Assembly (NCBI GenBank): GCA_965248925.1
Contig: CBDFLE010000005.1
Coordinates: forward strand, 2,272,001 to 2,336,000
DNA from: Candidatus Multivoradales bacterium
GTDB taxonomy: Bacteria > Acidobacteriota > Thermoanaerobaculia > Multivoradales > J023
DNA length: 64,000 nucleotides
Reading direction: 5' to 3'
Part shown: in pieces, positions 43,301-64,000 of the stretch
Layout: each line of letters starts with the position of its first letter
How positions within the stretch are numbered: the stretch's first letter is position 1
Notes under the pieces: generated by a model
Told to the model about the DNA's origin: nothing
What the model saw: the letters and a program-made list of their open reading frames with translations, nothing else
Databases searched by the model: none
Position numbers and translations under genes: made by a program

Positions 43301-46245
43301 CCACCGGCTTGCTGTTGAGCGATCCGATTCCGGCCCACACCAATGTCGTACCCGGCTCGGTCCTCAGCAGCCTGGGCACAGTGCTCAACGAACAGCCTCT
43401 AGAAGTGGCAATCAACGAGCTAGCCGCCGGAACGGTAGCGACGGTGAGCTTCTCCGTGCGCATCGATCAGCCCTTGGCCAGGGGGGTTGAAGAGATCGTC
43501 AATCAAAGTACCTTGACCGCCGACGACCAGCCCATTCTGCTGAGCGACGACCCGACCCTCGCCGGCAGCGCCGATCCGACAGTCATCGCGGTGCTCACCG
43601 GCACTCCCAGACTGCTGCCCCGCAAGACCGCCCTACTCTTCGACGACCGCGACGGCGATGGCCTGCTGTCGCCCGGCGATGGCTTGCTCTATCTGATCGA
43701 GGTTGGCAATCGGGGCGATGGTCTGGCCACCGGGCTGCGGCTCGAAGACTCCCTGCCTCCAGGTACCAGCCTAGAAGCCGGCTCGGTGCAGACTTCCCAG
43801 GGCACAGTGCTCAGCGAGCAGCCGTTGATCATCGACCTCGGCCAGTTGGGCAGCGGTGCCGAAGCCACCGTGACCTTGGTGCTGCGTATCGCCGAGCCCT
43901 TCCCCGCCGATCAACTGGCGGTGGTCAACCAGGCACGGATCACTAGCGCCGAGCTGCCTCTCTTGCTGACCGACGATCCGACCACCAGCGCGGTCGACGA
44001 TGCCACCGTCCGCGAGGTGTTCATCACTCCGACGGTGTCTCTCAGCGACAGCTCAGTCTCCGAGAACAGTGGCCCGGCCAGCTTCGACCTACTGCTGTCG
44101 ACCCCGCCCAATCGGCCCCTGTCAGTCGCCTGGCAGACCGCCGATGGCACGGCCAGCGCGGGCAACGACTACTTGGCCACCAACGGCAGCAGCGAGCTAG
44201 CCGCTGGCGAGACTGCCGCGGTGGTGGAAATCGAAATCGTCGACGACCAGCTCAACGAGCACGACGAGACCTTCCTACTTCAGTTGACGGCGGCCACCGG
44301 TGCAGTGATCGGCGATGGCGCAGGGCAAGCGACCATCACCGACCAGGATCCACCACCGGCCATCACCCTCGGCGACGCCAGCACCTTGGAGGGTGATGCT
44401 GGAGCCACTCCGGTGGGACTCAAATTGCTGCTGTCGAACGCCAGCGGCCTCGACATCGCGGTCGACTACACCACTGTCGACGGCAGCGCCATCGGCGGCG
44501 AGGACTACCGTAGGAAGAGCAGCAGCCTAGCGATCGCCGCGGGCGAGACCAGCGCCACCCTCGAGGTCGAAGTGCTCGGCGACCTCAAGGATGAGCTCGA
44601 CGAGAGCTTCGCGGTGCTAGTCACCTCGGCTTCGGGAGCCACCGTGGCCGACCCCAGCGGCACCATCGAGGTGATCGACGACGACCAGACCCGCCTATCG
44701 GTCCTCGACCGCACCGTCACAGAAGGTGACGAGGGTAGCCGCGAAGCGGCCTTCGAGGTGCGCCTCAGCCACGAGAGCGACCGTCCGGTGAGCGTCGACT
44801 ACCAAACCCGCGAGGACACCGCGCGAACCGGCGAGGATTTCCTGGCGACCCAAGACACCCTGCTGCTGGAGGCCGGCCGCATGCGAGCCGAGATCGCAGT
44901 GCCCGTGCTGGGCGACGAGATCTTCGAGCCCTTGGAGGAGACCTTCCACCTCGATCTGACCCATCCCATCGGCGCCGAGCTGGCCACCGCCAGCGCGCTA
45001 GGTACGATCCTCGACGACGAGCTCTGCGCCGGCCCCGAGCTGCTGCGCAATCCGGGGGCCGAGCTGCCCCTGCTAGGGAGCGATCTGCCCAACGAACAGG
45101 CACAGCTGGCGGTGTGGGTCCAGGTCGCTGGTGAGCATTGGTACCGGCGTGAGCAAGATCCGCTGGCGGCCGAGGGTGCCGCTTATTTCGCCGCTGGCCA
45201 GGCCGAGACAGCCGAACTGTCCCAGGTGGTCGACCTTAGCGGTTACAGCGAAGTGATCGCCCGCGGCGAGTTGCTGCTGGCCTTCTCCGGCCACCTGCGG
45301 ACCGCCGAGGAACAGCCCTCGGACACCGCGCGGGTGGTAGTAGAGTACTTCGAGGAGGATGGGAATTTGCTGCTCGATAGCTTCGACAGCGGCGAGATCG
45401 TCAGTCCCTCAGAATGGCTGCGGGTAGAGGATCTACGCTTGGTGCCGGTCGGCACCGACCGAGTGCGGGTGCGACTGCTCAGCAACCGCCTGGAGGGCGA
45501 CACCAGCGATGGCTACTTCGACGCCCTTTCCCTGCGGGTCATCCGCCAACCGGTGGTCGAGATCGACGACCTACGGATCGCCGAAGGCCACAGTGCCAGC
45601 GCGGTCGGCGAGCTGTCCGTCCGGCTGAGCTGCGCGATCGATCGTCCGCTGAGCATCACTTGGGAAACCGTCGATGGCACAGCGACGAGCGGCGTCGACT
45701 ACATCGAAGCCCGCGGCGCCCTGGAGCTGGCCAGTGGTACCGTCGGGGGTGTGATCGAGGTAGAGATTCTTGGCGATACGGAGCACGAGCTGCACGAGGA
45801 CTTCTTCGTCGAGCTGCGGGAGATCGAGCCCGCTGGGCTGGCGATAGCGCCCCAGCCGCGGGGCCGGGTGAGCATCCTCAACGATGATTTCTGCGCTCGC
45901 TCGCCAGGCTATTGGCAGCACCACAGCGACCTCTGGCCATTGTCGGAGTTGGCGTTGGGCGACCAGCAGATCGATCAGAGCGGCACTCTGGCGCTGCTGC
46001 AATATGGCGGCTCGGACGCCGCCAGCAAGCTCGCTCGCCAGTTGATTACCACTGAGTTGAATCTGGCCGTGGGCTCCGATCCGCTAGACATCTTGGCAAC
46101 CGTCGAAGCCGCCCATGCCTTCCTTGCAGACTGGCCGCCAGGCAGCCGCCCCAGAGGCCCAGACCGAGCCGAGGCCAACCGGCTAAAAGACATCCTCGAC
46201 GCCTACAACAATCCCGGCTGCACGCCGGTTGCGGTGCTCCCATGA
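28306..46245 (+). CDS. Giant (5979 aa) secreted multidomain surface protein
   Basis: Signal peptide (..ASPVAA); HELMH at 28840-28854; QW-type repeats RQQPAGYW/RQNAGGGWG/SQRTDGGWG/RQTDDGSW (~29450-30200); about 5 CARDB repeats (DPDNxxxExDExNN, ~30200-31930) plus one at ~41330; FlgD-Ig units (SPNGDG...WDG); TolB-like propellers (WSPDG); Fn3 units (LSWNAN.EPDLAGY, ~37620-40150); 4 DUF11-like units (PGDxLxYxI, ~42340-44020); Calx-beta (TxDGTAxxGxDY, ~44030-45890); C-terminal SPGYW..QL..LN..LDAYNN domain. Confidence 0.93.
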   Translation: MKTCRRSSLALILGLPLLLALLWIGASPVAADSLWLSTDPLATKDPAAAPKADHVTFRQDHGVVAVLEVEGNYDLRIDGVLNSELRAAVGQEFLAHHPDIYDFLVVFTSFEVDLGPQVLGNHLGLRNSVAGIGLPLFDNSSLFGSNSRLQGYIDMRSVTQNPTQPLAAEFESTLTVLSHELMHQWCCYVDFELANGSISDSLRAANGHWSYLLASDASVMYGGEWQDQGDGTFSNLRRQRAYGPLDRYLAGWLSTEEVPAALLIDNPAIDPATPPPAPGTLLSGIASAIEIAAVVAAEGPRLPATDQAQRDFRIAFLLLLRPGEAVANRDLAGLERVAAEIATRFTVLSGGQALADSGPLADSEGTIGTPGGTFGGDPRPAQDLDLAAALTWLRGRQQPAGYWQDTAGTRVRDTVIALRTLNALDPTFTGAPQALVWLAQQEQPSTDSVARLAAALSLAGQDVSNLREQLAGRQNAGGGWGIEANAASDPLDTALALVVLGGALAEDPAVGFLEASQRTDGGWGHVAAGPSRTTTTTTVLRALQAADRQGAALDAALSFLGGRQNGNDGGFGDSPSTVHDTAQVISTLSRLEALEHIDSAAAKDFLAGRQTDDGSWDGSVYATALAVDSLRRFEVPDWNFAQGLSAQPASPRDGQRVQLEVSVRNASSAAAPAATLRFYNHPPEQGGIVIGDEVPIPALLLGQSATLGTTWDTFDQAGPRRLVAVIDPDNLVAEADELNNRSQLDLTVEPPPAGIDLEIDASEVIAMPAHPTRLPTAVEIAAVVRNFGSSDAANVVLRLFLGEPEFGQLLDQIVLPQVAARNSSSGLLTFQLSDPGSFELWVEAAPEGDVEPSNNRALVRVETAPALDLEILASDLQVSADPAVLGSDVTFTVLAHNRGTVDSVSFALALSVSDGTEVRQLPTLSTQLAAGQTVELEIHWRVDLTGALTFTAAADPDGLLPENDRDNNQASLAFTASALTEPNLSVASLDLSFDPEPALAGAPLQLSILLRNTGGTALSNVAVAFWDGHPQQGGSRITETTVAALAAGDQALVSASWMVSGDQDRLIYATADPDDAVAEIDESDNLAFRPLSVLGLPDLVLSDAALSLTPPFPTPGETALLSARISNLGERPAGPFAVRALRLDAAGNEVLIGEQSLSIAAFDEDSVSFSLTLPADDQPGLLRIIADVLDEVVEGHEDNNQASLAFAVQGSDFFVSERYFSPDGDGLQDSTRLFFRLPAAADVDLVVRNLEGAAIRRFEHVLANGASSGETLWDGRDDQGRLAIDGDYRLTIESHPEGETLGEVLGTALVSLDTNHSSSRLALGSEFARFTRFTCELYEAQRFELSDDERWLYFQALDDTFQPGLYRARPSGPGVPQEVLRGRLTDFAVSANASRLAFSPDLAFGDFEDVFLAAGDGSSASLARPASRVLAFDYLDRLLLLHRAGNDHLEALPRGGGLPIELASWPATEDWRYALSRDRQSLAILLDGSEMRLFDLLSGTTATLTIPGASDPFTLPRDGGDHAVMRWSPDGSLLAIADEDGEQLHLLDQGGTLLHSVPLAAADYPAALQDLDEFSPQDYANANLRAVRPIEWNSRGDQLAVLLIFSGNGIDFFAVMTVDASTGSAAAAAWSAAVETAPVMSPVILGKALGEPSELLPFESGQIPSRIEWWHPDEQLLLYGPQGIELRPGLPLDRVFEDFDDFSPLAFLPSGRGLIFSTVDGIDDPGCFGDDVPDLWSFFSLLNLWVELTVEASEQLGTFQLSGTAADLHLANWRLEWRRTTELEEVWRPIAAPSSTAVVDQPLAQWIAPGPGLYEVRLLVTDLAGNQRQVRRMVANADTPSIANVRLEPAVFSTTGGSTLANHTEVIYDVLLPVNLRFDIFDVSGTFVTTLLRDHPTAGSGFRQLWNGTDSLGRPVPDGGYIIRVAGLELAVEIDSATPRIEHGATLRTERRIEGSCGDLLPIQDLQPLRLFDFFEPNLDTTSFEHGAGATPAIWQPVGSDLIDCFASQTSDLRCQISVPSLTAATSYRATATDLAGNRSVVVSPPRVQTALLIERIDPPAAGRDRRLGGRLQPFFPPSLPGDLLLHQAQLLRLLVAESTAAALNSISIQYRPINAAAPWLSQTVASSAPLDGRFEVIWDATLALRGVELEVRLRGLASDGSELLSNSFPLLLDPVESRGRLRPADLEPTAPHGELLSTLLTEAALDLDHQSVLWAVVKSDDPTLRLSASISSLDDPAFASSQALAVAISAQGIYLLVPRQPLDDDSTYLLSFRLSRPLSCPDGGLPFSLDSSLGSALSVEIDSRFEATDCDPADASLEISMVPRGGALVSLRLEQRLGDELSTVFSIQQPEDGETYRFTPSLSLPLEQAVTFIAAVQDGSGIPAYAQLELPGQPALPLLDLTQPGASQRLCGGAEIPLAGSIDSELLFAYRLQLSRDGESFSTFHEVTQATSLDSLLAIYGDADEEPSLAAGPASWRLQVVDIGGNVVCAEVATEIVELQAMPLIALDNPLISPNGDGLLDQLTVTYDSADPATLSLAIRDPAGNLVRQLASSVAIQGSGALSWDGHDASNQLVADGVYTVAANFGGLCGDLQSLLLAVEVDTTAPEVAIAFPRPGDPLDTLIEIFGSAIDRNFSQFTVERSATGSAVWSLIDSATTPRQDGLLAVWNSFGLQGAHSLRLSASDRAGNRASTQVDLFFDQRLELISDLSAVPRLLSPNGDGQLDASSIVFGLSAAARIDLQIVNSDGAVQLDLLSAVERGAGTHPARWTGELAGGILADDGDYRLRLTAAPLDQPLALQVEDLVLSVDASPPTLALSQPGAGSVVRGTAAITGSVTDPHLLAYRVELASGDAGPWSVLATGSVERLDYDFAHLANVTEGGYFLRLAAEDSAANGSSLPVAFTVDNTPPEVSWQLPENGAVLSGVNGPQNLLGSLVELNLVQYRIEFGAGSNPASWLPIAFGTEVSGSTVSTPWDIAAVADGPYILRLLAEDGAGWISEARRSIEIDNSPPMVALTAPGDGDFITEPTAILGTATDAHLLDYRLAVAAAGSQAFTEVFVGQQAVMTGLLANWAALPPDGPHTLRLSATDLAGQQASVEIEVEIDLTPPPPVVLSGELQQSRDAHLSWTSSAAADLAGYEIQRDGVEISGSPTQTTQLVDAALTTGSYFYTVRAIDHAGLRSPASNEVELTVDIDPPLAVLLRPADGQRVRGLVEVLGSAHSALDFAEYRLSIAEGDLSTGEGSWQLLRRSPVPVLAGDLGQWQAPTLSDATYTLRLEAEDLVGNVADVRLLLTVDNAPPATPTGLAANANGDDVTTSWDANIEPDLAGYLLYRDGQPLGDGSDTGDFGNLLIEPSGNPLELYLDTDVADAEHIYTVVAIDLAGNLSPPSAPAHVVVETGPPRAILVSPEDGREFDQTLFLAAIAEDGDIAQVQFQQRATGAAIWTDLSIDLTPPWEATWDPGILPFGGYQLRALATDFGARGDANPPSLSVTYRDLTAPAAVDGLTLVAVDGGQVELSWNANTSDPDLAGYRVFRAVSSESPTALNSNPISATTYTDNGLADSRYDYTVRAVDDQGNVSLASNSVDALIYTPTLDPLLSPTPESSLDATGTTPVAGASIEAVLVGPAGSQTLAAVLADAAGVFVLPAVSLQAGDQTLTVRSRSGVVLSKPASQGVISAPPPAAPSGLAAVVTGQQVELSWNANSEPDLLGYHLLRDDLRLTEPALTNPDYNESLADGTYGYRVQAVNIHGFESPLSALLEVEVGDGLAPEPVVLSGQAEGSDVVLTWSASASGDVARYRVFRDGLEIGSHADLGDLSYRDQQLANATYVYQVAAVDVGSNVSELSNQVAVTVAIAPLAAPEILAVSPLAEGGVLAVTWQAAPASNPATFELRRATLSGGPYATLQQTPLTSHQDLDLTSGLEYFYIVVAFDSLGNPSPPSAEASGIPGALGPLAPPVFSEPGSAAQPHLTDQLVITVGGRTESGAVVTVLHDGTEIGQASTTEQSQAVPGPGAELSFNPSADGRWAIVYNPFGVGLYDFNSDSETAILGLDPPLSFFADSSAAVFANRGAISRYSLSDGSVELLATIDSASFAVPSPDGQRLAVIGTQQGLTGLWIYDLDSANWTLLIEGFGFDLPQWSPDGVWLAYPRFSQVNIIQVASAAAQVVDPGFSSSLPSWSPDSQTLAYSLSGNQDEDLWLFHLATGSREPLLEGPRDQIEPRFSADGSAVGYIDTDRETEIDGSLFRLDLASGNSEELFHIGPDADGYFNFSITRFWSWTPADALFVDADLTLYRIASGSRFTLLGVEVEPGDNLFTAVAADDLGRISQPAEPMLVTVVIADRPDLEITASDLHLVPAVGRIGEPLRLSVTVHNRGDQAAAPSELALLQLGEDGSSDPLGSPLTVAAIAAGASSTVLVDLGPFAAAGSFEIRAEVDPQGLLPEISEANNQASTNFQVLAGSAPRLTVTTDRATYGAATEVAIRSSVIQGGEPWSGELLVSIEDRQGFLVQALGSTAIEELEIGVELLLDNQWNSANTFAGTYQVHGQLIDSSGQLVAEDLAEFELDEDLELATEVITDQPHYTLGETVQLTGGLTYLNGNAALTGATATLLIKSPAGAVLQQWTEPLGVLLPGASSQLVRNWPSSGNPGLHTARFEIHRAETLLSASETTFELLAEEPLFAELNATKTVELTFDGDGDGFADPGDRLRYRITLSNSGTGPATAVLLEDPIPAHTELVAGSVSGAGTLLSSDPLRVDFGQIAAGASGEINFEVTVDNPLPGGVEEIVNQGTVSADGLESLPTDDPTTPEPLDATRLPVRAAAELVVSKIDILQLDADGNGAASAGDTLRWEIHIENHGNANADQVVLRDFAPQHTSIVVGSATTTGGQIDSEDPLRVSLGALPAGGSATVSFAAMIDSQLTDEVREVLNQATVSSTSLPVVLSDDPDLGGDADPTLTPLEHAPRLVAEKTVSLDAADSDGRAGPGDLLHYTLVLRNLGAGAATGLLLSDPIPAHTNVVPGSVLSSLGTVLNEQPLEVAINELAAGTVATVSFSVRIDQPLARGVEEIVNQSTLTADDQPILLSDDPTLAGSADPTVIAVLTGTPRLLPRKTALLFDDRDGDGLLSPGDGLLYLIEVGNRGDGLATGLRLEDSLPPGTSLEAGSVQTSQGTVLSEQPLIIDLGQLGSGAEATVTLVLRIAEPFPADQLAVVNQARITSAELPLLLTDDPTTSAVDDATVREVFITPTVSLSDSSVSENSGPASFDLLLSTPPNRPLSVAWQTADGTASAGNDYLATNGSSELAAGETAAVVEIEIVDDQLNEHDETFLLQLTAATGAVIGDGAGQATITDQDPPPAITLGDASTLEGDAGATPVGLKLLLSNASGLDIAVDYTTVDGSAIGGEDYRRKSSSLAIAAGETSATLEVEVLGDLKDELDESFAVLVTSASGATVADPSGTIEVIDDDQTRLSVLDRTVTEGDEGSREAAFEVRLSHESDRPVSVDYQTREDTARTGEDFLATQDTLLLEAGRMRAEIAVPVLGDEIFEPLEETFHLDLTHPIGAELATASALGTILDDELCAGPELLRNPGAELPLLGSDLPNEQAQLAVWVQVAGEHWYRREQDPLAAEGAAYFAAGQAETAELSQVVDLSGYSEVIARGELLLAFSGHLRTAEEQPSDTARVVVEYFEEDGNLLLDSFDSGEIVSPSEWLRVEDLRLVPVGTDRVRVRLLSNRLEGDTSDGYFDALSLRVIRQPVVEIDDLRIAEGHSASAVGELSVRLSCAIDRPLSITWETVDGTATSGVDYIEARGALELASGTVGGVIEVEILGDTEHELHEDFFVELREIEPAGLAIAPQPRGRVSILNDDFCARSPGYWQHHSDLWPLSELALGDQQIDQSGTLALLQYGGSDAASKLARQLITTELNLAVGSDPLDILATVEAAHAFLADWPPGSRPRGPDRAEANRLKDILDAYNNPGCTPVAVLP

Positions 46246-49200: not shown

Positions 49201-50900
49201 ATCTGGTGCTGCGCCAGCCGATTTCCTCGGTCGCCTTCCCCCAGGATCCGGCGGCTCTGCGCCGCACCAACCGCGACGACAGCCAGGGCACCGACCTCAC
49301 CGTGCTGCACGGCCTGTGGCAAGACACCCTGGCGATCGCCGTCGAGGATCCGCACGGCAACCCGGTGGCCAACCAAGACGTGGCTTTCACCAACACCGTC
49401 TTCGTCGCCCCTGGCATCACCTGCACCAACGCTCCGCCGGACCCCACCCCAGGTGCCTTCTTCGACGCCTCAATCGACTCGATCACCGGTGGCTTCACCG
49501 GCTGCCCGGTCACTACGCCCCGTTTCGGCGATTGCGGCAGCTCCGATTTGACCCTGAGAACGACCTCCTCGGGTCAGGTCTCGGCCGGTTTCATCGCCGG
49601 CCCCAGCGCCATTACCAGCTACCCGGCAACCGTCAGTTCAGCCGCCTTGCCACCGCTGTCTTACGAGTACAGCATTTCCTTCATCAACAACACGGGCCTC
49701 AACCACGACCACTGCGGGCCGCTGGCACAGCGCTTCGTGCGCACTTTCGGGTTCTTCGCCGACGCCGCCGGCCAGCCCAGCTCGGCAGTGCGAGCCGGCC
49801 AGGTCTACGACCCACCGGTCGGAGTCGAGGCCCTCGAATGGGTGCCCGAGTGCCAGGGGATAGGGATCGCCGACCCCAGCCCGGGGGGACCGCTGTTCTT
49901 CCTGGTCTGCAACGAGCTACGAGGCGAGTGGCGACCCGCCTATTTCTACCAGGACGGCAGCCATCCGCTGGCGGTTGAACTGCTGCCCGCCGGCACCACC
50001 ACGCCGCCACAGATCGACAACCTCCTCGGCCGCCTCGAGAGCCGGCTGCAAGCCGGCCTCGACCCAGCCTTGCACACTGCTCGGGTGTCGCTACCAGTGC
50101 TGCCCAAGAGTCCCTACCTCGACGACTTCAATGGCGAAGTCACTGTGCTCGAAACCCCCGAGGACTACCTCGCCGTCGGCCTGCTCGACATTGCCCTCGG
50201 ACTGATCGCCAACATCGACCAAGAAATCGGCAGTCTGTGGGGGGTGCAAGCTCAGATCACCAGCTTCGAGCCGCCTATCGTGCCCCTCGACGACGACGGC
50301 CTCGCAGCTGAGCCGGTAGCGGTGAGCTACCAGATCGCGCCGGCCGAGTATCAGCCCACTAGTGCTTTCGTCGAGCTGCTGCGCGACGGCCAACAGGTCG
50401 ACCTCTTGCGCGGCCAGAGCATCGCTGGAGAAGGTCTCGCCGAGCTGCCCCGCGGCCTTGAGCTGGGCCTCGACGGTCTGTGGCAGGCCGAGCTGGTGCT
50501 CAATCTCGACACTCCGATCGAAGTACGCGGCGACCCCGTGCCGGTGCCCCTAGAGCAGCAGCTCTTCGCCGACTACAGCCGCGCCTTGGCGGTGCGCCAG
50601 GATGTCGACCTGCTCAACCAGCGACGCTGCGCCCAGCCGACCCTCTTCAGCTTTGAGCTCAACCGCCCGGCCGAGGTCACCCTGATCGCCCGCCGGATCG
50701 AGAGCGTCGAGACCGACGGCAGCCTCAACACCGCCGCCGCCATCACCCTGATCGAAGCCGAGATGTTTGCCGACGGCGAGCACGGCGAGCCGATCAGCCC
50801 CACCGACCTGCCCCCCGGCGACTACCTGATCGAGCTGCGCGGCATCGACGCGGTGGATGGCTACGAGGAGGTCCGCGAGGCCCGGCTGAGTTCCGATTGG
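45948..50900 (+). repeat. Direct repeat copy 1 (portion matched within window)
   Basis: GTTGGCGTTGGGCGACCAGCAGATC... at 45948 recurs at 59036. Colinearity continues to the window end (offset 13088, then 13100 after a 12-bp insertion). Confidence 0.97.
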
Positions 50901-53900: not shown

Positions 53901-56900
53901 CCCCGAGGCATCCTCACCGAGAACCGCTGGGACGCCGAGAACCGCCGCACCCACACCCTGCGCGCCAATCTGCTCATCGAGCAGGTTGAGTTTGATGCCG
54001 CCGGCAACCGAACGAAAATCTGGGATGCCAACCGCAACCTAGCCCAATTCGACTATGACGAACGCCAGCTCATCATCACCGAGCGCCGCCCCCTCGGCGC
54101 CACCACCACCTTCACCCGCGACAGTATGGGCGACGTAATCCGCCGCCAAGACCCAGCCGGCAGATTCACCGATTCCACCTTCGACTTCCGCAGGCGCAAG
54201 CTCACCAGCACCCGCTTTGGCGAAGGAAATCGCCCCGAAACCACCACTTCCTCTTACGATTCCCAGGGCAACCGCATCGGCAAGCTGCGCCCCGAGGGCA
54301 ACGCCTGGACTTACAGCTTCGACGGTGCCCACCGCCTCACCGAAGTCGAAGACCCCGACGGCGATCTCACCACCTACGAACTCGACCAAAACGGCAACCT
54401 CATCACCCAGATCGACGCCGCCAGCCAACCCACCACCTACACTTGGGACGAGCTAGACCGCCGCACCTCCATCACCCAGGCCGACGGCGCCACCGAGACC
54501 TTTACGTTCGACGAAAACGGCAACCTCGCCCAACACCGAGACGCCAAAAACCAACTCTTCACCCGCACCCACGACTCGCTGAATAGGGAAATAGCCCTTC
54601 AGTACCCAGAAGACCCCTCCACCGACGACGACCTCGAGCAGATCACCACCACCTGGGACGCCAACGGCAACCACCTCCAAACCGCCGAACACTTCACGCA
54701 AACGGGGGAACTCACCACCACCCAGACCTGGGACGATTTTGATCGCCTAGCCACCCGAACCGACCGCTGGGACAACACCCTCATTCACGGCTACGATCTC
54801 AACGGCAACCGCACCCTGCTCATTGACCCGGCGGGCATCCCAACCACCACCACCTTCGACGCCCTCAACCGAGTCGACACCGTCACCACCCCCGGCGGAG
54901 TCACCGACTATCAGTACCTCGCCAACAGCCTGCTCAGCCAGATCGACTATCCCAACGGCACCACCAGCACCTGGCAATACGATCCCGCCAACCGCATCAG
55001 GGACCTCGACCATCGCCAGAACACCGCCCTGATCTCCAGCTTCCAATACCAGTACGACCGCAACGGCAACCGCACTGAGCAGATCGAGACCCACACCAGC
55101 CAGCCAGCCGAAACCACCATCTACGCTTTCGATCTAGTAGACCGCCTCGCCACCGTCGCCTACCCCGAGAAAACCGTCACCACCACCTACGATGCTGTAG
55201 GCAATCGCATCTCAGAATCGGCCGTCGACAACGGCGCCACGACGATCACCGACCGCCTCTACGCCTACGACAATCGCCACCGATTAGTAACTGTCACCGA
55301 CCAACTCGACGCCGCCCAAGCCGTCACCTACACCCACGATGCCAACGGCAATCAGTCAACCCGAACAAGAGACAGCCAGCTAACCCAGCTGACCTACGAC
55401 ACTCGCGATCAGCTCACCCAGGTCATCGAAGCCAGCGTCATCCAAGGCACCTACGCATTCGACGCCACCGGCCTCAGAGTCCAAAAGCTAACTGCTGAAG
55501 GTGAAGCGAGATACGTCTACGATCAGCAAAGCGTCCTGACTCGAGAAGACAACGATGGAATCACCAAATTCAACTACGCCCCAGATCGCTTGCTCTCCGT
55601 CGATGACCCCGTAGAAGGCCGCGCCTACTACCTCCACGACGCCCTGGGCAGCGTCGTCGGGCTGATGACCCCCGGCGGCAGCCTGCTCGGTCGATATCGC
55701 TGGGACGCCTGGGGCAACAAGCGGGCCTCAGTTGAAACCGACGCCAACCCCTTCGGCTTCACCGGCCATGAGCACGATGAGGAAACCGGGCTGATCTACG
55801 CCAAGGCACGGTTCTATGATCCGGAATTGGGGCTCTTCTTGAACTCTGATCCGGCCGAAGGCGACTTGCAGAATCCACCGAGTCTGCATCGGTATCTGTA
55901 TGCCTTCCAGAACCCGACCGTCTACACCGATCCCGATGGTAGAGCGCCCCTCGGCCTAGACTTTGCGCCTCTGCTCATTCCCGTCCAGGACGCATACCGC
56001 CAATCGCTCGCAGAAGAGTCGCGATTCCTGACCAATGCAGAATTCGACGCGCTACCCGACGCAGAGCGAGAGCGCCGCATCGACGAAGAGTTCGATCGGC
56101 TCATCACTGGTCGTCCCTCCACGCCTACCGGCACCACCAGCGAGCAGGGCAAGACCCAAGAATCCGGTATTCGTGCGGCCCTCGACAACTTCTTCATCGA
56201 CCCGTTCAGAAGGCTTGGCGAATCCGCCCGGCGCACTATTGAGGGCTTCGAGAAGCTAAGCGACAAGATCTCCACCCGCGACAACCGCGACGAATTCCAG
56301 AAAGCCAAAGAACCATCCCTTGGAGGAGCCCACGGCGGTGTAACAATCCTCGTCGAAGCCAATGAGCAAGCGGGTGTCGTGGCATCGAGAGCTGCCCAGA
56401 CAGCCCTCGATGCCGAAGAAGCCATCGGCCGTGTTAGCCTCGGCGGGTTGGGGATTGGGCTAGGGAAGAGGCTAGTAAAGAAGGGCGCGCAGGAGGGTGC
56501 GGAGTTTGGCGCGAAGGCTGCGGCGAGAGGCCCAAGAAGCACGCCAAGCGGGATACCCGGCTTACCTCGATCACTTGGAGCCGCCGGTCAGATAGAAATC
56601 CAAAGCAGCATCGGAAGTAGCAAGTATGCGGTCAGGCTAGCAGAGAGCATGGGAGATGCCGCTCAACGCGATGTCGACGCACTTATCAGTGCGCTTCGCA
56701 GCGGCAATTCAAACCCGGGTATTGGAACGAAAAATATCGGCGGCGGGTTCTTTGAACTCCGCGGCCGCAACGCTGGAAGAGTGATCGTAAGGCGGACTGG
56801 GATCAACTCCTTCGATGTTGTCGGCAAGTTCCAAGGCCATGCCCGTGGAGACGCGGCAAACTCACAGATCATCCGTCGCCTAATCGAGGACGCGCAGTGA
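46242..56900 (+). CDS. RHS/YD-repeat polymorphic toxin (3552 aa) with signal peptide, transglutaminase-like domain, Ig-like domains, DUF6531, RHS core and RelE-like C-terminal toxin
   Basis: N-terminal hydrophobic signal; YAGSMKGA..GNDVDQASLLIALYRASG..ARYV..HTWV (transglutaminase fold); GVDLFDGHL..RTYSS..FGLGW (DUF6531); dozens of YD/xDxxG repeats; core FGFTGHEHDEETGLIYAKARFYDPELG..DP..YAFQNPTVYTDPDG (DPDG 55929-55940), followed by a ~319-aa extension. Confidence 0.95.
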   Translation: MNCPTTRPRFARSFRRWLTSAGILLLASAVLATEPPAETSRTALETRILDQLARGRSIEGPLASWRSTRPVSTEESPTKTAPTSLNEALVELRQALPSKAKSRLDTSALTAAWESFQAWDLLQGDRFERTAARLDAAGLSGEPRARLERVRGDWQEFHDRLKTLLAEPLASLRTAQRTEQPALNVAAKAAAELLDTYPATLDRPMLRATSLPYRQLRLPARLPVTEPAIVPSYLDLADPGSTPTDLEPSSAAPLADEILLQAEELGYDYVAIYEFVRHQIATEWYAGSMKGALGTLRQGAGNDVDQASLLIALYRASGAAARYVGGVIELPLPWLNTQLGLDDGTAVADYLARAGIAHRPVIRGGRIAAFDVEHTWVSAHVPYSNYRGSVVDFSGRSWIPLTPALEPVERQPSTEVLAAMGFTANNFVTEMLSAAQLETPLSLLRQRVEQYLLDTDGGTYAEQLGSVTSTGQPLGLLPNGFYHPVLAVTFEDSELPASARHRLRLITRGETTAGSPAILDHQLDLHQALGRRLTLSYAPATSDDHLIINLWGGLAEVPPFLVRLRPQLYIDGRRIAVGEPVDAAKLHRFEAVVEGPFGSQEISQIVLSGAYHAIAVGGQHFQATELADNDPGDGEQLAARLLSGLAYSYGADWDAAETEIGGLLAVSPARPLPALVIASNSLRAELLLGVPQRLIWEGVTLDAALRVAEPAARDGSTETAADWMRLAALEGSALEQAIFEGQFQVAAISADRGLALARDSGIEVLRLDAGNLTAELPSLNHPQTVRDDVVALIAQGLTVEIPRQPISVSAWTGSTWRAEDPESGTAGYFLSGGLAGGATVEAPENWLLGFLADALAAPMSDSPNTDPLAGVELLVAEGTDSQLGTVDRVYRHPLAVRVLDAAGRPVQGTEVTFYIWAGDGRLLDTQNQESTSLTLRSDARGMARVKLRSGKHTAANPLFLRRFDSDIFQTRVLENVVEAVASSRLGNLVLRQPISSVAFPQDPAALRRTNRDDSQGTDLTVLHGLWQDTLAIAVEDPHGNPVANQDVAFTNTVFVAPGITCTNAPPDPTPGAFFDASIDSITGGFTGCPVTTPRFGDCGSSDLTLRTTSSGQVSAGFIAGPSAITSYPATVSSAALPPLSYEYSISFINNTGLNHDHCGPLAQRFVRTFGFFADAAGQPSSAVRAGQVYDPPVGVEALEWVPECQGIGIADPSPGGPLFFLVCNELRGEWRPAYFYQDGSHPLAVELLPAGTTTPPQIDNLLGRLESRLQAGLDPALHTARVSLPVLPKSPYLDDFNGEVTVLETPEDYLAVGLLDIALGLIANIDQEIGSLWGVQAQITSFEPPIVPLDDDGLAAEPVAVSYQIAPAEYQPTSAFVELLRDGQQVDLLRGQSIAGEGLAELPRGLELGLDGLWQAELVLNLDTPIEVRGDPVPVPLEQQLFADYSRALAVRQDVDLLNQRRCAQPTLFSFELNRPAEVTLIARRIESVETDGSLNTAAAITLIEAEMFADGEHGEPISPTDLPPGDYLIELRGIDAVDGYEEVREARLSSDWDISEILPIGHTLVHGVDLFDGHLTISRTDLEIPGRGIGLALRRTYSSLAVSSGGPFGLGWNHRYQSRVVITPCGEAILIGGEGSGLRFVDDGQGGLRPLRGSHGTLRADPADGGFDFFTTSGNRFHYLFSEDSTWHLAWTEDPNGNRTTLTYIAGADGPLLRQVTDSSGRALVFDYRQARFAAWDGPVIEHITGPGGLAMSFDYDRFGNLITAQRDNQSRIERYTYQTQPNAGLELRPVMTSTTNGLSGASTHYTWQSGAVAIEAGLSIDALLVSSITHPEGGVATFAFDQQLLGNAATLELETTVTDRRQRATTYRLNRYGSPVVITDPIGHTTRKTWTPGDVLMLSRTDQNGVVTSFEYDQHGNRTTERVQVTDETGTLVTRERLSTYFSPSAFIAEGIKNHLKSHTDGRGHTTQFEYDAQGNLTRQHITVIDAEGAASTVESRHTYYSNGDRRTTTDARSHASTFTWDTFGNPATVRDRENGLTTFAFDSRGRQLSQTDPNSHTTRLAYDDLDRLILRTLADGSVEQIQHDDIARTRTQIDPRGHATRTSFDLEGRPIEIVNAEGGQQQMEYDPEGNLTLESTVFDATTLRHNTLLVYDDAGRLIRREEPEGRTTDRELDPAGNVLRQTLADRGDPSFTPRVTETDYDRLNRPIETRRLLDAGFIAGQIAFDLENNPVHSTDPLGRVTTITFDALDREIERTEPEWKAGTPRVSQRFWDGNGNLIKTVLFNEPENQIRETTYDRLNRPIRQLDATGELRTMEYDPAGNLTVKIDRRGHRTEHQYDERNRRIKTTVKLAAGNAITEFTFDPSSNLIEQLQPNQNRITHTYDPLNRRLTSDDREGQLSQTGYDARGVPIRQEDANGNVTLSQFDGLGRMIRQDLPEDRTVLQTYDVAGNRLATTNPRGHATTARFDTLNRQIEELSPAPFNYLRQMTWDDAGNLLSETDRRGNTTEFTYDDLDRRITRLEPPVLSDGSEVRYLTTWAQDTAGNQLTEVDPRGILTENRWDAENRRTHTLRANLLIEQVEFDAAGNRTKIWDANRNLAQFDYDERQLIITERRPLGATTTFTRDSMGDVIRRQDPAGRFTDSTFDFRRRKLTSTRFGEGNRPETTTSSYDSQGNRIGKLRPEGNAWTYSFDGAHRLTEVEDPDGDLTTYELDQNGNLITQIDAASQPTTYTWDELDRRTSITQADGATETFTFDENGNLAQHRDAKNQLFTRTHDSLNREIALQYPEDPSTDDDLEQITTTWDANGNHLQTAEHFTQTGELTTTQTWDDFDRLATRTDRWDNTLIHGYDLNGNRTLLIDPAGIPTTTTFDALNRVDTVTTPGGVTDYQYLANSLLSQIDYPNGTTSTWQYDPANRIRDLDHRQNTALISSFQYQYDRNGNRTEQIETHTSQPAETTIYAFDLVDRLATVAYPEKTVTTTYDAVGNRISESAVDNGATTITDRLYAYDNRHRLVTVTDQLDAAQAVTYTHDANGNQSTRTRDSQLTQLTYDTRDQLTQVIEASVIQGTYAFDATGLRVQKLTAEGEARYVYDQQSVLTREDNDGITKFNYAPDRLLSVDDPVEGRAYYLHDALGSVVGLMTPGGSLLGRYRWDAWGNKRASVETDANPFGFTGHEHDEETGLIYAKARFYDPELGLFLNSDPAEGDLQNPPSLHRYLYAFQNPTVYTDPDGRAPLGLDFAPLLIPVQDAYRQSLAEESRFLTNAEFDALPDAERERRIDEEFDRLITGRPSTPTGTTSEQGKTQESGIRAALDNFFIDPFRRLGESARRTIEGFEKLSDKISTRDNRDEFQKAKEPSLGGAHGGVTILVEANEQAGVVASRAAQTALDAEEAIGRVSLGGLGIGLGKRLVKKGAQEGAEFGAKAAARGPRSTPSGIPGLPRSLGAAGQIEIQSSIGSSKYAVRLAESMGDAAQRDVDALISALRSGNSNPGIGTKNIGGGFFELRGRNAGRVIVRRTGINSFDVVGKFQGHARGDAANSQIIRRLIEDAQ

Positions 56901-57142
56901 GGGGCAAGCAAGAGGTTAGGACCGTGCGCGAGCTGAGCGGCGAGATCTGGGCCGAGGTTCAAAGCAGATTCAGCAACGAAGAAATCGATTGGCGTGTTCA
57001 GGGCCGCCTCGCCGATGTTGTGATGGGTATCTTGGCCCGCCACGCGGGTAAGGTCATCGAAAATGATCGGGACCTTCCAGTCTTGCCACTTCCAAAGTTG
57101 GATTTTGGCGCGACCTGCGAGGATGAGGAGCAGGCTGAATAG
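56897..57142 (+). CDS. Probable cognate immunity protein (81 aa)
   Basis: Small ORF with an acidic tail whose GTG overlaps the toxin stop (GTGA), the usual position for polymorphic-toxin immunity genes. No family recognised. Confidence 0.7.
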   Translation: MRGKQEVRTVRELSGEIWAEVQSRFSNEEIDWRVQGRLADVVMGILARHAGKVIENDRDLPVLPLPKLDFGATCEDEEQAE

Positions 57143-57192
57143 GTGTCAACCGAATCTATTCTCACCTAGAACAAGCAGCTTGCTTTGAACAC

Positions 57193-57212
57193 AGCCCGGC
57201 GATCGCCGGGCT
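57193..57212. terminator. Perfect 20-bp palindrome, likely terminator between convergent immunity and XRE genes
   Basis: AGCCCGGCGATCGCCGGGCT is its own reverse complement and is followed by TTC on the + strand. Confidence 0.6.
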
Positions 57213-57230
57213 TTCGTGATTCAGGAACTA

Positions 57231-57566
57231 CTAGCCAGAGGCCAGCCGCTTGGCCTGATGCTGGAGGATGAGCCCATCGAGGACTGTCTTGGCGACCTTC
57301 CTGGCGTCGGGATCAAACTGGGCCAGGGCCTCGAACTGAAGCAGCAGATCATCGCTGGGTCCTCTTTCCTCGGCATCGAAGAGCAACGCATCTGCACTCA
57401 CGCTGAGAGCGACTGAGAGTTTCCGAATCGCGTCGAGTCCAGGCTGGGAAGAACCTCCCTCGTAGCGGCGCACCTGCACAACGTGGAGCCCGACAGTGTC
57501 AGCAAGCGCCTGCTGGGTAAGGCCCCGTTGCTTTCGTAGTGTGCTCAGCCGTTGTGCGAATTCCAT
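57231..57566 (-). CDS. XRE-family helix-turn-helix transcriptional regulator (111 aa)
   Basis: MEFAQRLSTLRKQRGLTQQALADTVGLHVVQVRRYEGGSSQPGLDAIRKLSVALSVSADALLF is a clear HTH_3 pattern. ATG 57566 is preferred over the ORF-track start 57620. Confidence 0.9.
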   Translation of the reverse strand: MEFAQRLSTLRKQRGLTQQALADTVGLHVVQVRRYEGGSSQPGLDAIRKLSVALSVSADALLFDAEERGPSDDLLLQFEALAQFDPDARKVAKTVLDGLILQHQAKRLASG

Positions 57567-57799
57567 CTCAAGGTGTCCCGTCCGCCGCGTCCACAAGCAT
57601 ATTTGTGGCTGAAGGGTCACTTTATTGGTCGCCTGCCCTTGCTGGTGGCCAGCGCCGTACTGACAATTCTCAACTCACTCAGAGAACCTCCTCGACGGAT
57701 CTCGATTTCCTCTGGTTGCCCAGAATCCTTGTGTCCCGGACGCAGCTCACCATGGACAGCGTGCTGCGGTCTGCCCTTCCTTCGCCGTCCCGAGCCGCT

Positions 57800-58629
57800 C
57801 TACTTGGGCGCGTAGAAGCCAGAGAGCACTCCTTGCCAGGCGGTCAAGAATTGTAGCTGCCCTCGCGGGCGCCAGCGACCGGTCCAGATCTCGCCCGGCG
57901 TACAGCCGTCGAGGCTCTGGTGCGGGCGAAGATCGTTGTACCAATAGCGGAAGACATCCCGCGGCCGTTCTGCCAGGGCGAGGCCACCTGAGTGCGCTGG
58001 TGGCGAATGCCGAGCAGAAGAAGCGAAAGCCTGAAGATCCACGAGGTGAAGACCGGCTCGTTGTCGGTGCGCAGGCACTTTGGCTTACCACCTAGCTCAA
58101 TCGCGTCGAGCAGCTGGCGCACCAGCTCGACCGACGCCTTCGTCTTCAAAGTCTGAAGGCGCAAGCAAAGCCGAGTCCCGTGATCGAGCAAGCCGAAGAT
58201 GGTCTCTTTCTGCCCGGCGGCGTTGTTGGCATAGGTGAGATCGGCGGCCCAGATCAGCCGCTTGTCGACCGTCCCAGGTTTCCTCCTGCGGATCTTCTGA
58301 CGCCAAGCGAGGATCTCCAGCTGGTGCTCTTTGAAGATCTTCGCAACATAGCTCTTGCCGACCGTCATCCGGCGATGGCGGTAGTTGCGATTGAAGGCGG
58401 CTGCGATGGCTCGACAGCCATCGGAGGGCTGCAACGCCTTGAGCCGGATCACTGCTTGCCGAACCCACCTGGGCTTGGGCCGGCAGAAGCCGCGATAGGT
58501 CGTCGGGCCGGGTGGACACTACGCTCGGCGGCGGTGCTTTGCTTTGGGCTGTTGAGCGAGCGAAGTGACCGCAAGAAGGAGAAGCAAGACAGGCGCGCAG
58601 AGCAATGCGCCGGCAAGATCGGAAGTCAT
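57800..58629 (-). pseudogene. Disrupted DDE (rve) integrase/transposase, IS3/IS481-like core
   Basis: WAADLT, LLDHGTR, LRTDNEPVF, SPWQNGR, then in another frame FRYWYNDLRPHQSLDGCTP. The frame breaks at ~57960, where the expected ERxxxTLK helix (catalytic Glu) is missing. There is also an in-frame TAG at 58519-58521 downstream of ATG 58629. Confidence 0.82.
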
Positions 58630-58868
58630 TGCCCGAGGATATCGACCTCGCCCGGCTCAACGCGAAGCGGCGCGCTGGTCCTCTGATGAGCTGCGAGCGG
58701 ATCGCTCCCTCACCGGTCACCGCCAGAAGACCAGGGGCTCGGATCGTACAGAGCTAGCTCGAAATCCATCTCTGCCACCCTCGCCTCGACCCTACGTCTG
58801 GCTTTGGCCCCTACGGTCCTGGCGGCGATCTCGTTGGCCAGCCGCTCGCCTTTGCCGAGTACCGATGG

Positions 58869-59333
58869 TTGACCGCGGCCAGAAAGGTCGCGGTCAGGTC
58901 TTCGATCGGCGCATCGGGGGGGGAGCTTGGTCTCGGAGAGGCTCTCGATGCTAGGGTGCTGCAAGCGTTGGTTTGCGCCAGAGACTTGTGCAACGATCTG
59001 GCGCACCGCCTGTCGGATGGAGTTATGGTCGGAAGGTTGGCGTTGGGCGACCAGCAGATCGATCAGAGCGGCACTCTGGCGCTGCTGCAATATGGCGGCT
59101 CGGACGCCGCCAGCAAGCTCGCTCGCCAGCTGATTACCACTGAGTTGAATCTGGCCGTGGGCTCCGATCCGCTAGACATCTTGGCAACCGTCGAAGCCGC
59201 CCATGCCTTCCTTGCAGACTGGCCGCCAGGCAGCCGCCCCAGAGGCCCAGACCGAGCCGAGGCCAACCGGCTAAAAGACATCCTCGACGCCTACAACAAT
59301 CCCGGCTGCACGCCGGTTGCGGTGCTCCCATGA
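58869..59333 (+). pseudogene. Orphan C-terminal fragment (~98 aa) of the giant protein, fused in frame to unrelated upstream sequence
   Basis: LALGDQQIDQSG...NNPGCTPVAVLP is identical to the end of 28306..46245. Possible starts are TTG 58869 or ATG 59025. The ATGA overlap with RHS copy 2 is retained. Confidence 0.75.
58870..59005. promoter_or_regulatory. Two inverted repeats just upstream of the duplication junction
   Basis: TGACCGCGGCC-agaaa-GGTCGCGGTCA (58870-58896) and TGCGCCAGA-N14-TCTGGCGCA (58974-59005). Function unknown. Confidence 0.45.
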
Positions 59334-62300
59334 ACTGCCCAACAACGCGGCCTCGCTTTGCTCGCAGCTTTCGGCGCTGGCTGACCAGCGCTGGAATTCT
59401 CCTGCTTGCCAGCGCCGTGCTCGCGACCGAGCCGCCTGCTGAGACTTCGCGCACCGCGCTAGAGACACGAATCCTCGACCAGCTAGCTCGCGGCCGGTCG
59501 ATCGGGGGGCCGCTGGCGAGCTGGCGTTCGACCCGTCCAGTCTCGACCGAGGAATCGCCCACAAAGACTGCGCCTACCAGCCTCAACGAAGCGCTAGTAG
59601 AGCTGCGCCAGGCCCTACCCTCGAAGGCTAAGAGCCGACTTGACACCTCTGCCCTTACTGCCGCCTGGGAGAGCTTCCAAGCCTGGGACCTGCTGCAAGG
59701 CGACCGCTTCGAACGCACCGCCGCCCGCCTCGATGCGGCCGGCCTCAGCGGCGAGCCCAGAGCTCGTCTAGAGCAGGTCCGCGGCGATTGGCAAGAGTTC
59801 CACGACCGCCTGAAGACCCTGCTCGCTGAGCCCTTGGCCAGTCTCCGAACGGCACAGAGAACCGAGCAGCCGGCTCTCGCGCCGGCCCTCAATGCGGCCG
59901 CCAAAGCCGCCGCCGAGCTGCTCGACACTTACCCGACCACCCTTGACCGCCCAATGCTGCGGGCTACCAGCTTGCCCTATCGCCAGCTGCGCCTGCCGGC
60001 CCGTCTGCCAGTCACTGAACCGGCGATCGTGCCGAGCTATCTCGATCTCGCCGATCCCGGCTCCACACCTGCCGACTTGGAGCCCAGCGGCGCCGCGCCG
60101 CTAGCTGATGAGATTCTCTTGCAGGCTGAAGAGCTGGGCTACGACTATGTGGCGATCTACGAGTTCGTTCGCCACCAGATCGCCACCGAGTGGTACGCCG
60201 GCAGCATGAAAGGCGCGCTCGGCACTCTACGCCAGGGAGCCGGCAACGATGTCGACCAGGCGAGTCTGCTGATCGCCCTCTACCGCGCCAGCGGAGCGGC
60301 GGCGCGCTACGTCGGCGGGGTGATTGAATTGCCGCTGCCCTGGCTCAACACCCAGCTGGGCCTTGACGACGGCACTGCGGTGGCCGACTACTTGGCTCGC
60401 GCCGGTATTGCCCACCGGCCAGTGATTCGCGGCGGTCGTATCGCCGCCTTCGAAGTCGAGCACACCTGGGTCAGCGCTCACGTTCCTTACAGCAATTACC
60501 GTGGCTCGGTGGTCGACTTCTCAGGCCGTAGCTGGATCCCGCTGACGCCGGCTCTGGAACCGGTCGAGAGACAGCCGTCTACCGAGGTACTGGCCTCGAT
60601 GGGCTTCACGGCCAACGATTTCGTCACCGAGATGCTGAGCGCGGCCCAGCTCGAGACCCCGCTGAGCTTGCTGCGCCAGCGAGTCGAGCAATACCTGCTG
60701 GACACCGATGGCGGCACCTACGCCGAGCAACTCGGCTCGGTGACCTCTACCGGCCAACCCCTCGGCCTGCTGCCCAACGGCTTCTATCATCCAGTTCTGG
60801 CGGTAACCTTCGAAGACTCCGAGCTACCGGCGAGCGCCCGCCACCGGCTGCGATTGATCACCCGCGGCGAGACCACGGCAGGCTCGCCAGCCATCCTCGA
60901 TCACCAGCTAGACCTACACCAAGCTCTCGGTCGACGTCTGACTCTGTCCTACGCCCCGGCAACCTCCGACGATCACCTGATTATCAACCTCTGGGGCGGC
61001 CTGGCAGAAGTGCCACCCTTCTTGGTGCGGCTGCGGCCCCAGCTCTATCTCGATGGCCGCCGCATCGCCGTCGGCGAGCCGGTGGACGCCGCCAAGCTGC
61101 ATCGTTTCGAGGTGGTGGTGGAAGGGCCGTTCGGCAGCCAAGAAATCAGTCAGACAGTCCTATCAGGCGCCTATCACGCCATCGCTGTGGGCGGTCAGCA
61201 CTTCCAAGCCGTCGAGCTGGCGGACAACGACCCAGGCGACGGCGAGCAGCTCGCCGCCCGCCTGCTGAGCGGCCTCGCCTACAGCTATGGTGCCGATTGG
61301 GACGCCGCTGAGACCGAGATTGGCGGCCTCTTAGCCGTGAGCCCGGCACGGCCGCTGCCGGCGCTGGTCATCGCCAGCAACTCCTTGCGCGCCGAATTAC
61401 TGCTGGGAGTGCCGCAGCGGTTGATCTGGGAAGGCGTCACCCTCGACGCCGCGCTGCGCGTCGCTGAACCCGCAGCTCGTGACGGCTCCACCGAAACCGC
61501 CGCCGACTGGATGCGCCTGGCGGCGCTCGAAGGCTCGGCGCTGGAGCAGGCGATTTTCGAAGGACAATTCCAGGTCGCGGCAATCTCGGCCGACAGGGGC
61601 CTGGCCCTGGCCCGCGACTCGGGCATCGAGGTGCTACGCCTCGACGCTGGCAATCTGACCGCCGAGCTGCCCAGCCTGAACCACCCTCAAACCGTGCGTG
61701 ACGACGTGGTCGCCCTCATCGCCCAAGGGCTGACGGTCGAGATCCCCCGCCAGCCGATCTCCGTCAGTGCCTGGACCGGATCGACATGGCGAGCCGAAGA
61801 TCCAGAGAGCGGCACGGCCGGCTACTTCCTCTCCGGCGGCCTGGCCGGTGGCGCCACCGTCGAGGCGCCTGAGAACTGGCTGCTGGGCTTCCTCGCCGAT
61901 GCCCTGGCCGCGCCCATGTCAGACTCCCCCAACACCGATCCTCTCGCTGGCGTCGAGCTACTCGTCGCCGAGGGTACTGACAGCCAGCTCGGCACCGTCG
62001 ACAGGGTCTATCGTCACCCTCTGGCGGTGCGCGTGCTCGACGCGGCCGGCCGACCGGTCCAGGGCACCGAAGTCACCTTCTACATCTGGGCTGGCGACGG
62101 CCGGCTGCTCGACACCCAGAACCAAGAATCCACCAGCCTCACCCTACGCAGCGACGCCCGTGGAATGGCCCGCGTCAAGTTACGTTCAGGAAAGCACACC
62201 GCGGCTAACCCCCTCTTCCTTCGTCGCTTCGACAGCGACATCTTCCAAACCCGAGTGCTGGAGAACGTGGTCGAGGCGGTGGCCAGCTCCAGACTCGGCA

Positions 62301-64000: not shown

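Follow-up and report, generated by a model that had tools for sequence, protein, structure and literature searches.

A single-ended IS481-like transposase family at polymorphic toxin arrays of bacteria

The 64,000-nucleotide stretch of the Candidatus Multivoradales bacterium genome analysed here (the window) carries a giant gene, which we call the carrier, followed by the first members of a tandem array of RHS genes (array A). Between the first two RHS copies lie the remains of an IS481-like DDE transposase, one representative of a family with a single conserved end. What stands out in this work is the link between a single-ended transposase and polymorphic toxin loci. The features on which the argument depends are listed below, numbered from the first letter of the window (aa, amino acids; ORF, open reading frame).

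28306..46245, plus strand: giant carrier gene, 5979 aa, with CARDB, FlgD-Ig, fn3, Big, DUF11 and Calx-beta domains
45948..46245, plus strand: 298-bp carrier tip, copied upstream of A2 and A4
46242-56900, plus strand: RHS A1, 3552 aa
55929..56900, plus strand: variable C-terminal tip of A1, a putative toxin by its position
56897-57142, plus strand: 81-aa ORF overlapping the RHS stop, a candidate immunity gene by its position
57193..57212, no strand: perfect hairpin, within 57135-57214
57231..57566, minus strand: XRE gene (Pfam HTH_3)
57574..57592, plus strand: single element end, TGTCCCGTCCGCCGCGTCC, also present in a short-read contig
57800..58629, minus strand: IS481-like DDE transposase pseudogene, 87-89% identical in aa to the intact copy P0003
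58710..59035, minus strand: remnant of a small ORF that precedes the transposase in the intact copies of this genome, its start cut by the joint
59036..59333, plus strand: novel joint 59035/59036 and copy of the carrier tip, in frame to the ATGA overlap with RHS A2
59330-70012, plus strand: RHS A2, 3560 aa, with its stop beyond the window and a tip unlike that of A1
73820-84514, outside the window: RHS A3, 3564 aa
On contig C6, outside the window: RHS A4, 3543 aa, following A3

The first-pass annotation had described the DNA from 45948 as recurring from 59036 to the window end, in a unit composed of the 298-bp carrier end, the RHS gene, the 81-aa ORF, the hairpin, the XRE gene and the rve pseudogene. 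Both the recurrence (98.55% over 4976 columns by blastn, the exact match between repeats ending at 45948/59036) and these contents of the A1 unit stand. So does the expectation that one carrier is followed by several full-length toxins: A2 is not truncated, has a tip of its own and is followed by further units, and array A holds four full-length RHS genes of 3543-3564 aa with four different tips. The end of contig C5, to which the window belongs, is the reverse of the end of contig C6 over 669 identical bases, so array A crosses into C6, which adds A4 and a 1.8-kb internal RHS fragment. The proposed period of ~13.1 kb did not hold, as start-to-start spacings are 13.1, 14.5 and 16.3 kb. The third copy had been placed at ~72.1 kb behind an XRE gene and an integrase; it starts at 73820, and the spacer before it contains 3.2 kb of carrier with neither of those genes. 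A4 is preceded by another XRE gene, an IS21 insertion sequence (IS), the same rve remnant and 298 bp of carrier. Here IS21 stands where the element end would be (L003:16400-18841, minus strand), and an IS21 end closes the array after the last RHS fragment. The truly repeated part is the rve remnant, the 298 bp and ~10 kb of core, and the tip, immunity ORF and XRE gene vary.

A second locus (C5:1.235-1.258 Mb) contains two further full-length RHS copies, B1 and B2, and the six tips (A1-A4, B1, B2) are all different. XRE genes lie downstream of the tips of A1, A3, A4 and B1. The element is absent from the A2-A3 spacer and from the whole second locus. The piece of carrier retained upstream of an RHS copy measures 298 bp (A2, A4), 3202 bp (A3) or 1123 bp (B2), and one further left border, that of the last fragment, falls inside the RHS gene itself. 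The joints before A2, A3, B2 and the last fragment connect unrelated DNA, with imperfect microhomology of 6-7 nt visible by eye at two of these four. These left borders are novel joints rather than one crossover site; because a homologous crossover leaves no joint, joints of unrelated sequence disfavour it.

The carrier begins with a signal peptide (by eye), and its stop codon overlaps the RHS start (ATGA); a large ORF also lies upstream of related RHS genes in three further genomes (G004, G016, G035). No match was found for the last 119 aa of the carrier. A1 consists of a signal peptide (by eye), a transglutaminase-like domain (PF01841 at 255-381), DUF6531, RHS/YD repeats, an Rhs-associated core, a DPDG motif and the tip. 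An Asp replaces what we take, from the expected position of the motif, to be the catalytic Cys of the transglutaminase-like domain. With its triad lost, and with RHS/YD repeats, core and DPxG motif preceding a variable tip, A1 has the makeup of the RHS toxins with an inactive transglutaminase. A2, A3, A4 and B2 share the N-terminus of A1 and so are not orphans in the usual sense of 5'-truncated copies devoid of a start and export signal; B1 has a different N-terminus and no carrier upstream.

No tip gave a significant family match in Pfam or NCBIfam, in PDB sequence searches of two of the six tips, or in an Atlas search of one of the six (best score 0.82). We presume, from a general impression, some resemblance to RelE-, ParB- and papain-like toxins. 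One ORF downstream of a tip matches DUF6966. As no tip matched a family, it is by their position that the tips are putative toxins and the adjacent ORFs putative immunity genes. The cores of A1-A4 and B2 are mosaic along their whole length, with 13,635 of 23,871 informative site pairs incompatible, so that exchange is not limited to the carrier tip. All six RHS frames are open although the integrase between copies has decayed, and core pN/pS is 0.19-0.27 across the six; open frames would be expected if each copy is under selection, and equally if an expressed copy serves as donor for gene conversion of the others.

Some further features near the arrays are recorded here in their own right. The N-terminal region of the carrier (28306-29505, plus strand) has an HExxH motif and no Pfam match, and a RadC/JAB gene (L004:5849-6520, minus strand) lies just upstream of B1. 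A KptA/Tpt1 RNA 2'-phosphotransferase gene stands directly behind toxin-immunity pairs twice in array A (L003:2921-3529, minus strand; behind A3). At an unrelated CdiA locus (L133), a gene that we take to be KptA/Tpt1 by resemblance also follows a toxin-immunity pair.

The decayed integrase that separates A1 from A2 was correctly recognised as a pseudogene in the first-pass annotation, where it was treated as debris, yet it proved to be the most informative feature of the window. The pseudogene (rve) has an early stop and an 88-bp deletion that removes the catalytic Glu. The intact relative P0003 is a 304-aa DDE protein with 1389 homologs, and its triad (D130, D189, E225) is invariant in 30 aligned homologs. 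Foldseek matches to retroviral integrases (E 1.6e-9) indicate an integrase fold. The protein scores below the IS481 family threshold (NCBIfam NF033577, 108.4 bits against a curated cut-off of 224) and matches the DDE_Tnp_IS240 domain marginally (27.5 bits against 27). A hydrophobic N-terminal stretch or helix is present in 84/109 full-length homologs and in 0/109 control stretches.

All 17 transposase matches of this genome lie inside RHS arrays, which make up 4% of it. One of them, larger than array A, is array D (~210 kb; C4:133000-284747 and C5:1-65000, part of it in L006), built from a different RHS protein (~5050 aa) in about six full-length and several truncated copies. It has its own 4727-aa carrier, 4.8 kb of which precedes one full-length unit, and an HTH-TPR gene before most units. 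Nine intact copies of the transposase gene reside there, all with an intact triad and together showing a pN/pS of 0.22, and the element body is cut at many different places.

We compared 80 family loci from many phyla, of which 74 have 300 nt of downstream sequence. The element end reads TGTCCCGTCC from outside in and lies ~230 nt behind the transposase gene (mostly 200-280 nt). It was found in 63 of the 80 loci, and TGTCCCGT occurs downstream of the gene in 40 of the 80. A mirror end was found at none of the 63 loci (at most 3 mismatches in 16 nt; the upstream search reached as far as 1500 nt, and 58 of these loci offered 500 nt or more). Nor did a family-wide upstream motif emerge, the best 8-mer occurring at 7/73 loci and inspection anchored on TTGAC showing nothing common. 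We therefore reject a conserved family-wide left end. The two terminal inverted repeats of an IS481 element were not found; one genome has a weak candidate border. The left flanks of the end vary freely, and inspection by eye showed no target duplications at the flanks or between successive ends. In this genome the end motif occurs 26 times forward and never in reverse, and 25 occurrences lie within RHS arrays. An end-like match at C5:683735 was discarded as a degenerate chance match inside an unrelated ORF. In the window the XRE start codon is preceded by the element joint at a distance of 8 nt.

The element is found beside toxin genes of several kinds. By tblastn, RHS, CdiA-like or RTX cores are near it at 38 of 80 loci, and at 29 of the 43 with at least 5 kb downstream; some of the core queries were taken from these same loci, and Pfam confirmed 11 CdiA-like and 3 RTX loci among the ORFs picked. 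Every RHS or CdiA neighbour (35/35) is on the strand opposite to the transposase. The three RTX neighbours are on the same strand, and two of them have an N-terminal lipase or peptidase domain, a weak hint that the end may face the variable side in RTX loci too. A later set of nine loci, two of them already in the earlier set, contributed seven new ones: at six the core is on the opposite strand, and at the seventh an end is preceded by what remains of a tip-immunity pair. In three species of one genus, all in this set, a common cdiA core (90-96%) leads into different tips, each then followed by an end, and in the same genus the head tip of one species is an orphan in another. In a complete Nitrincola genome, all four transposase genes and all nine ends lie in one 23-kb CdiA array. 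Among 72,556 plasmids the element was found once, beside a giant gene, compared with 764 for the IS21 of array A. The family is not dispersed in the manner of an IS, and its copies lie within contigs and complete chromosomes. The controls for this toxin association are orientation and confinement within the genome, rather than a matched background from other genomes.

Two side observations concern cargo next to the element. At three loci (L032, L038, L059), RTX proteins with an N-terminal lipase or peptidase M23 domain alternate with small ORFs beside it, and these are candidate N-terminal polymorphic toxin arrays. In Nitrincola (L098:8082-11842), end fragments separate small minus-strand gene pairs where no transposase is present. 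These pairs look to us like toxin-antitoxin or AbiE cargo, a label we give by resemblance, and other cargo may be captured at the element end.

The end has left footprints, and it comes to lie at the 3' end of putative immunity genes. For 11 of the 13 end clusters of array D, the ORF after the toxin stops no more than 34 nt away, and five such ORFs have lost their stop and read on into the element. Of the other two clusters, one cuts an IS gene and one lies 127 nt behind the toxin stop. Moreover, full ends are preceded by stacked end fragments, 16 in all and 5-496 bp long. For five of them the better match is the end of another unit (0-1 mismatches) rather than the neighbouring end (2-8 mismatches), and they are thus not products of local slippage. 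One stacked fragment represents a variant that is absent from the full ends of this genome and present in other species, and stacked end fragments recur in other genomes. The single end, its orientation, the confinement to arrays, the position of the joints, the stacks and the conserved catalytic residues are all observed, and the association of the element with toxin loci is strong.

The best reading of these observations, and one to which we give slightly better than even chances, is that strand transfer is one-ended and that homologous recombination in the toxin core then completes the event. In a single strand transfer the enzyme would attach its only end to a target, and the product would survive only if homologous recombination repaired the other side, through the toxin core or another copy of the element on the target. 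That restriction would account for the lack of dispersal. The outcome would depend on the target. Where it lies on the sister chromosome, immediately left of the end, DNA would be deleted as far as the immunity gene; where it lies just within an element, end fragments would become stacked; and where it lies on incoming DNA, behind an immunity gene of foreign origin, a new tip-immunity pair would be gained. The dead copy in the window keeps its end, on which intact copies elsewhere in the genome could act in trans.

The array itself could be built as follows. Incoming DNA with core, tip and immunity gene would find its anchor in the 10-kb core, through homologous recombination, and an illegitimate joint would form at its far end. 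If that joint fell upstream of the RHS start, within the carrier, the displaced toxin gene would stay full length; if it fell inside the core, an orphan would result. RecA exchange would then copy units and homogenise the cores, and full-length repeats would be the product of illegitimate joints and RecA exchange together. The arrays described here suggest that one kind of event can end either in a full-length duplicate or in an orphan.

Several observations weigh against the one-ended proposal. Both element copies in array A are pseudogenes, and the element is not needed for full-length duplication, because the A2-A3 spacer and the second locus lack it. The mechanism does not make the second joint, between the element body and the carrier or core; that joint resembles a product of ordinary illegitimate recombination. 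All four Nitrincola elements break off ~90 nt before the gene, in sequences that resemble one another and, weakly, the element end, possibly a cryptic left end. Among loci with at least 5 kb downstream, 14/43 have no RHS, CdiA or RTX core, and several have housekeeping neighbours. The family is patchy (7/50 and 2/147 genomes in two genera), and 50 of the 402 20-kb bins of this genome have a core match, many such RHS loci being without the element. The array D ORFs taken as immunity genes were chosen by position, and the stacks were found by motif search, so that they start at TGT partly by construction.

Of the competing explanations, the one that survives best makes the element a passenger: an IS481-like element that lost its left end would make adjacent deletions only and ride along with toxin modules, which would themselves be propagated by unequal crossover and by homology-facilitated illegitimate recombination that needs no enzyme. 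The units that lack the element (A2-A3, B1-B2) and the dead copies in array A agree with this, adjacent deletion accounts for ends that creep up to the immunity gene, and enzyme-free models have been published (PMC5361080, PMC3150448). Yet an IS without a left end should decay, and here an invariant triad and a pN/pS of 0.22 were found; both the single end and the orientation, moreover, are repeated across phyla. We consider a mere passenger unlikely.

A second possibility is that the element has two ends after all, the left one cryptic and specific to each lineage, and that an element moves with its adjoining module and inserts beside a resident copy, building arrays as the translocatable units of IS26 or the transposition units of ISEcp1 do. 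In two other genomes (G061, G009) and in array D, modules are separated by directly oriented copies, and the four G061 elements have a common left border with a weak end-like sequence. The absence of any mirror end or common upstream motif across the family, the many places at which the element body is cut in array D, the flanks free of target duplications by eye and the near absence from plasmids all speak against it, and we regard it as improbable.

The first-pass annotation had itself offered a model, in which a circle of carrier tip, RHS gene, immunity gene, XRE gene and integrase integrates as a fixed unit by crossover in the 3' tip of the carrier. The A1-A2 layout is as this model expects, and the joint between the element and the 298-bp piece occurs twice, before A2 and before A4. 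The carrier pieces are of three lengths, though, the spacers differ in content and show no periodicity, and left borders at four places, made of joints of unrelated sequence, together with mosaic cores, leave the model very little probability.

Alternatively, the XRE gene could belong to the machinery that drives the array, as part of a module of XRE, primase and the tyrosine recombinase XerD, the DDE element being secondary. The XRE gene of the window is 77% identical in nucleotides to that of such a module behind a related RHS gene in G016, where the module is doubled, and the stretch 57135-57214 is 80% like the one preceding another such module, at C4:253164. XRE genes do follow four of the tips, and this genome has 14 XerD copies at 79% or more. 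Arrays A and B contain no XerD gene, however, and in the window the TGT joint interrupts the module 8 nt before the XRE start, the remainder being replaced by the element end. It is highly improbable that XerD drives these arrays. Tandem runs of one XerD-type recombinase gene occur elsewhere in the genome (for example C5:923000-976000 and C6:3501000-3518000); the XerD copy used as query is part of an XRE-primase-XerD module.

The assembly was checked by comparing 55000-60000 of the window with short-read contigs from four runs of one sample. A 1.4-kb contig spans the tip, immunity ORF, XRE gene and element end (56277-57676) in three of four runs, and the joint at 59036 is crossed by 30 letters of contig in all four, where our bridging rule asks for 31. 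The joint between IS21 and the element in the A3-A4 spacer was seen as a loose end in short-read contigs. Contig depths for the unique tip, element remnant and RHS start stand at ~1:2:4 (15.9, 32.3 and 64.7 in run X2; 22.9, 48.4 and 85.8 in run X3) where the assembly predicts 1:2:5, depth being no direct measure of copy number. No single short-read contig from these runs spans the whole unit or stretch. Although the array crosses a contig break and the four runs come from one sample with no piece spanning a unit, the presence of every joint tested in short-read contigs, the depths near prediction (with the caveat just given) and spacers that differ in gene content and decay leave next to no room for a false tandem array merged from strain haplotypes. 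As for the wider assembly, the end of C4 overlaps the start of C5 and the starts of C4 and C6 have a common repeat, and therefore C4, C5 and C6 probably form one chromosome; contig C1 has a 1223-bp terminal repeat (circular).

Elsewhere in the window lies a gene for a 5836-aa nonribosomal peptide synthetase (6260-23770, minus strand), with five condensation domains and a luciferase-like monooxygenase domain in its first 4999 aa. It is flanked upstream by further synthetase modules and downstream by M28 peptidase and ornithine carbamoyltransferase genes.

Returning to one-ended transfer completed by recombination, a broader version would have a widespread, membrane-anchored, single-ended integrase domesticated for toxin loci, capturing the tip-immunity pairs of rivals for RHS, CdiA and RTX proteins. 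We hold this to be a tenable idea that is somewhat more apt to be wrong than right; if true, it would be an integron-like memory built from half a transposon. A one-ended transposase that relies on host recombination would, if confirmed, be a new way of taming a DDE enzyme. The matter bears on the way in which bacteria acquire further toxin-immunity pairs without giving up those they have. With a named enzyme, a 10-bp end and a geometry that is fixed, the question of tip acquisition becomes directly testable.

The present family resembles IS481 elements in its length (~300 aa), helical N-terminal domain and rve core, DDE triad and an end beginning with TGT. It differs in its score (108 bits against 224), its one end, its N-terminal hydrophobic helix, its lack of dispersal and its almost complete absence from plasmids. 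IS26 has two ends. With IS26 (IS6 family) the element shares directly oriented copies between passengers; the two inverted repeats and an IS6-type transposase were not found. The enzyme is a DDE protein rather than the tyrosine integrase of an integron with its attI and attC sites, attC sites not having been searched for. A full-text literature search found no description of the element; subscription journals, ISfinder and the neighbourhood file of PMC3482391 lay outside it and may hold one.

Zhang et al. 2012 (PMC3482391) described RHS toxins whose N-terminal transglutaminase domain is inactive, and array A resembles these in its signal peptide, dead transglutaminase-like domain, RHS repeats, variable tip and small downstream ORF. 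It differs from them in its tandem full-length copies, four in array A and about six, of another RHS type, in array D; the accessible text of that paper describes neither such arrays nor this transposase. Tandem duplication and recombination through the core at rhs and cdi loci have been published (PMC3150448, PMC3967940, PMC4436062). Our arrays are like the rhs and cdiA orphan arrays (PMC3150448, Poole 2011; PMC3967940, Koskiniemi 2014), for which tandem duplication was proposed as an intermediate, in having tandem toxin-immunity modules and recombination through a conserved core. The orphans known from those reports have no start and export signals, whereas A2-A4 and B2 keep both; truncated RHS units do occur after A4 and in array D. 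The main text of PMC3150448 makes no mention of a transposase or integrase. Kirchberger 2017 (PMC5361080) presents effector-immunity arrays in which one side is anchored by homology, the other joined illegitimately and old modules pushed downstream, and states that there is no evidence for integrase assistance. Here, by contrast, a conserved DDE enzyme and its end mark one class of joints. A Stenotrophomonas preprint (10.64898/2026.07.13.738213) places IS sites and Xer systems beside poly-immunity loci.

Among mobile elements, ISEcp1/ISEc9 (PMC12116815) performs one-ended transposition with a surrogate second end and a 5-bp duplication. Our element is like it, and like IS26, in combining one true end and a variable second border with direct-orientation copies in arrays. 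It is unlike ISEcp1/ISEc9 in that no duplication was seen by eye and the toxin pair lies outside the conserved end. The telomeric one-ended transposons of Hsieh et al. (10.1101/2024.11.13.623437) are DDE elements with one specific end that use the telomere as second border and move with two ends. Like them, the family described here is a DDE element with one specific end; unlike them, it sits inside chromosomes, at toxin loci.

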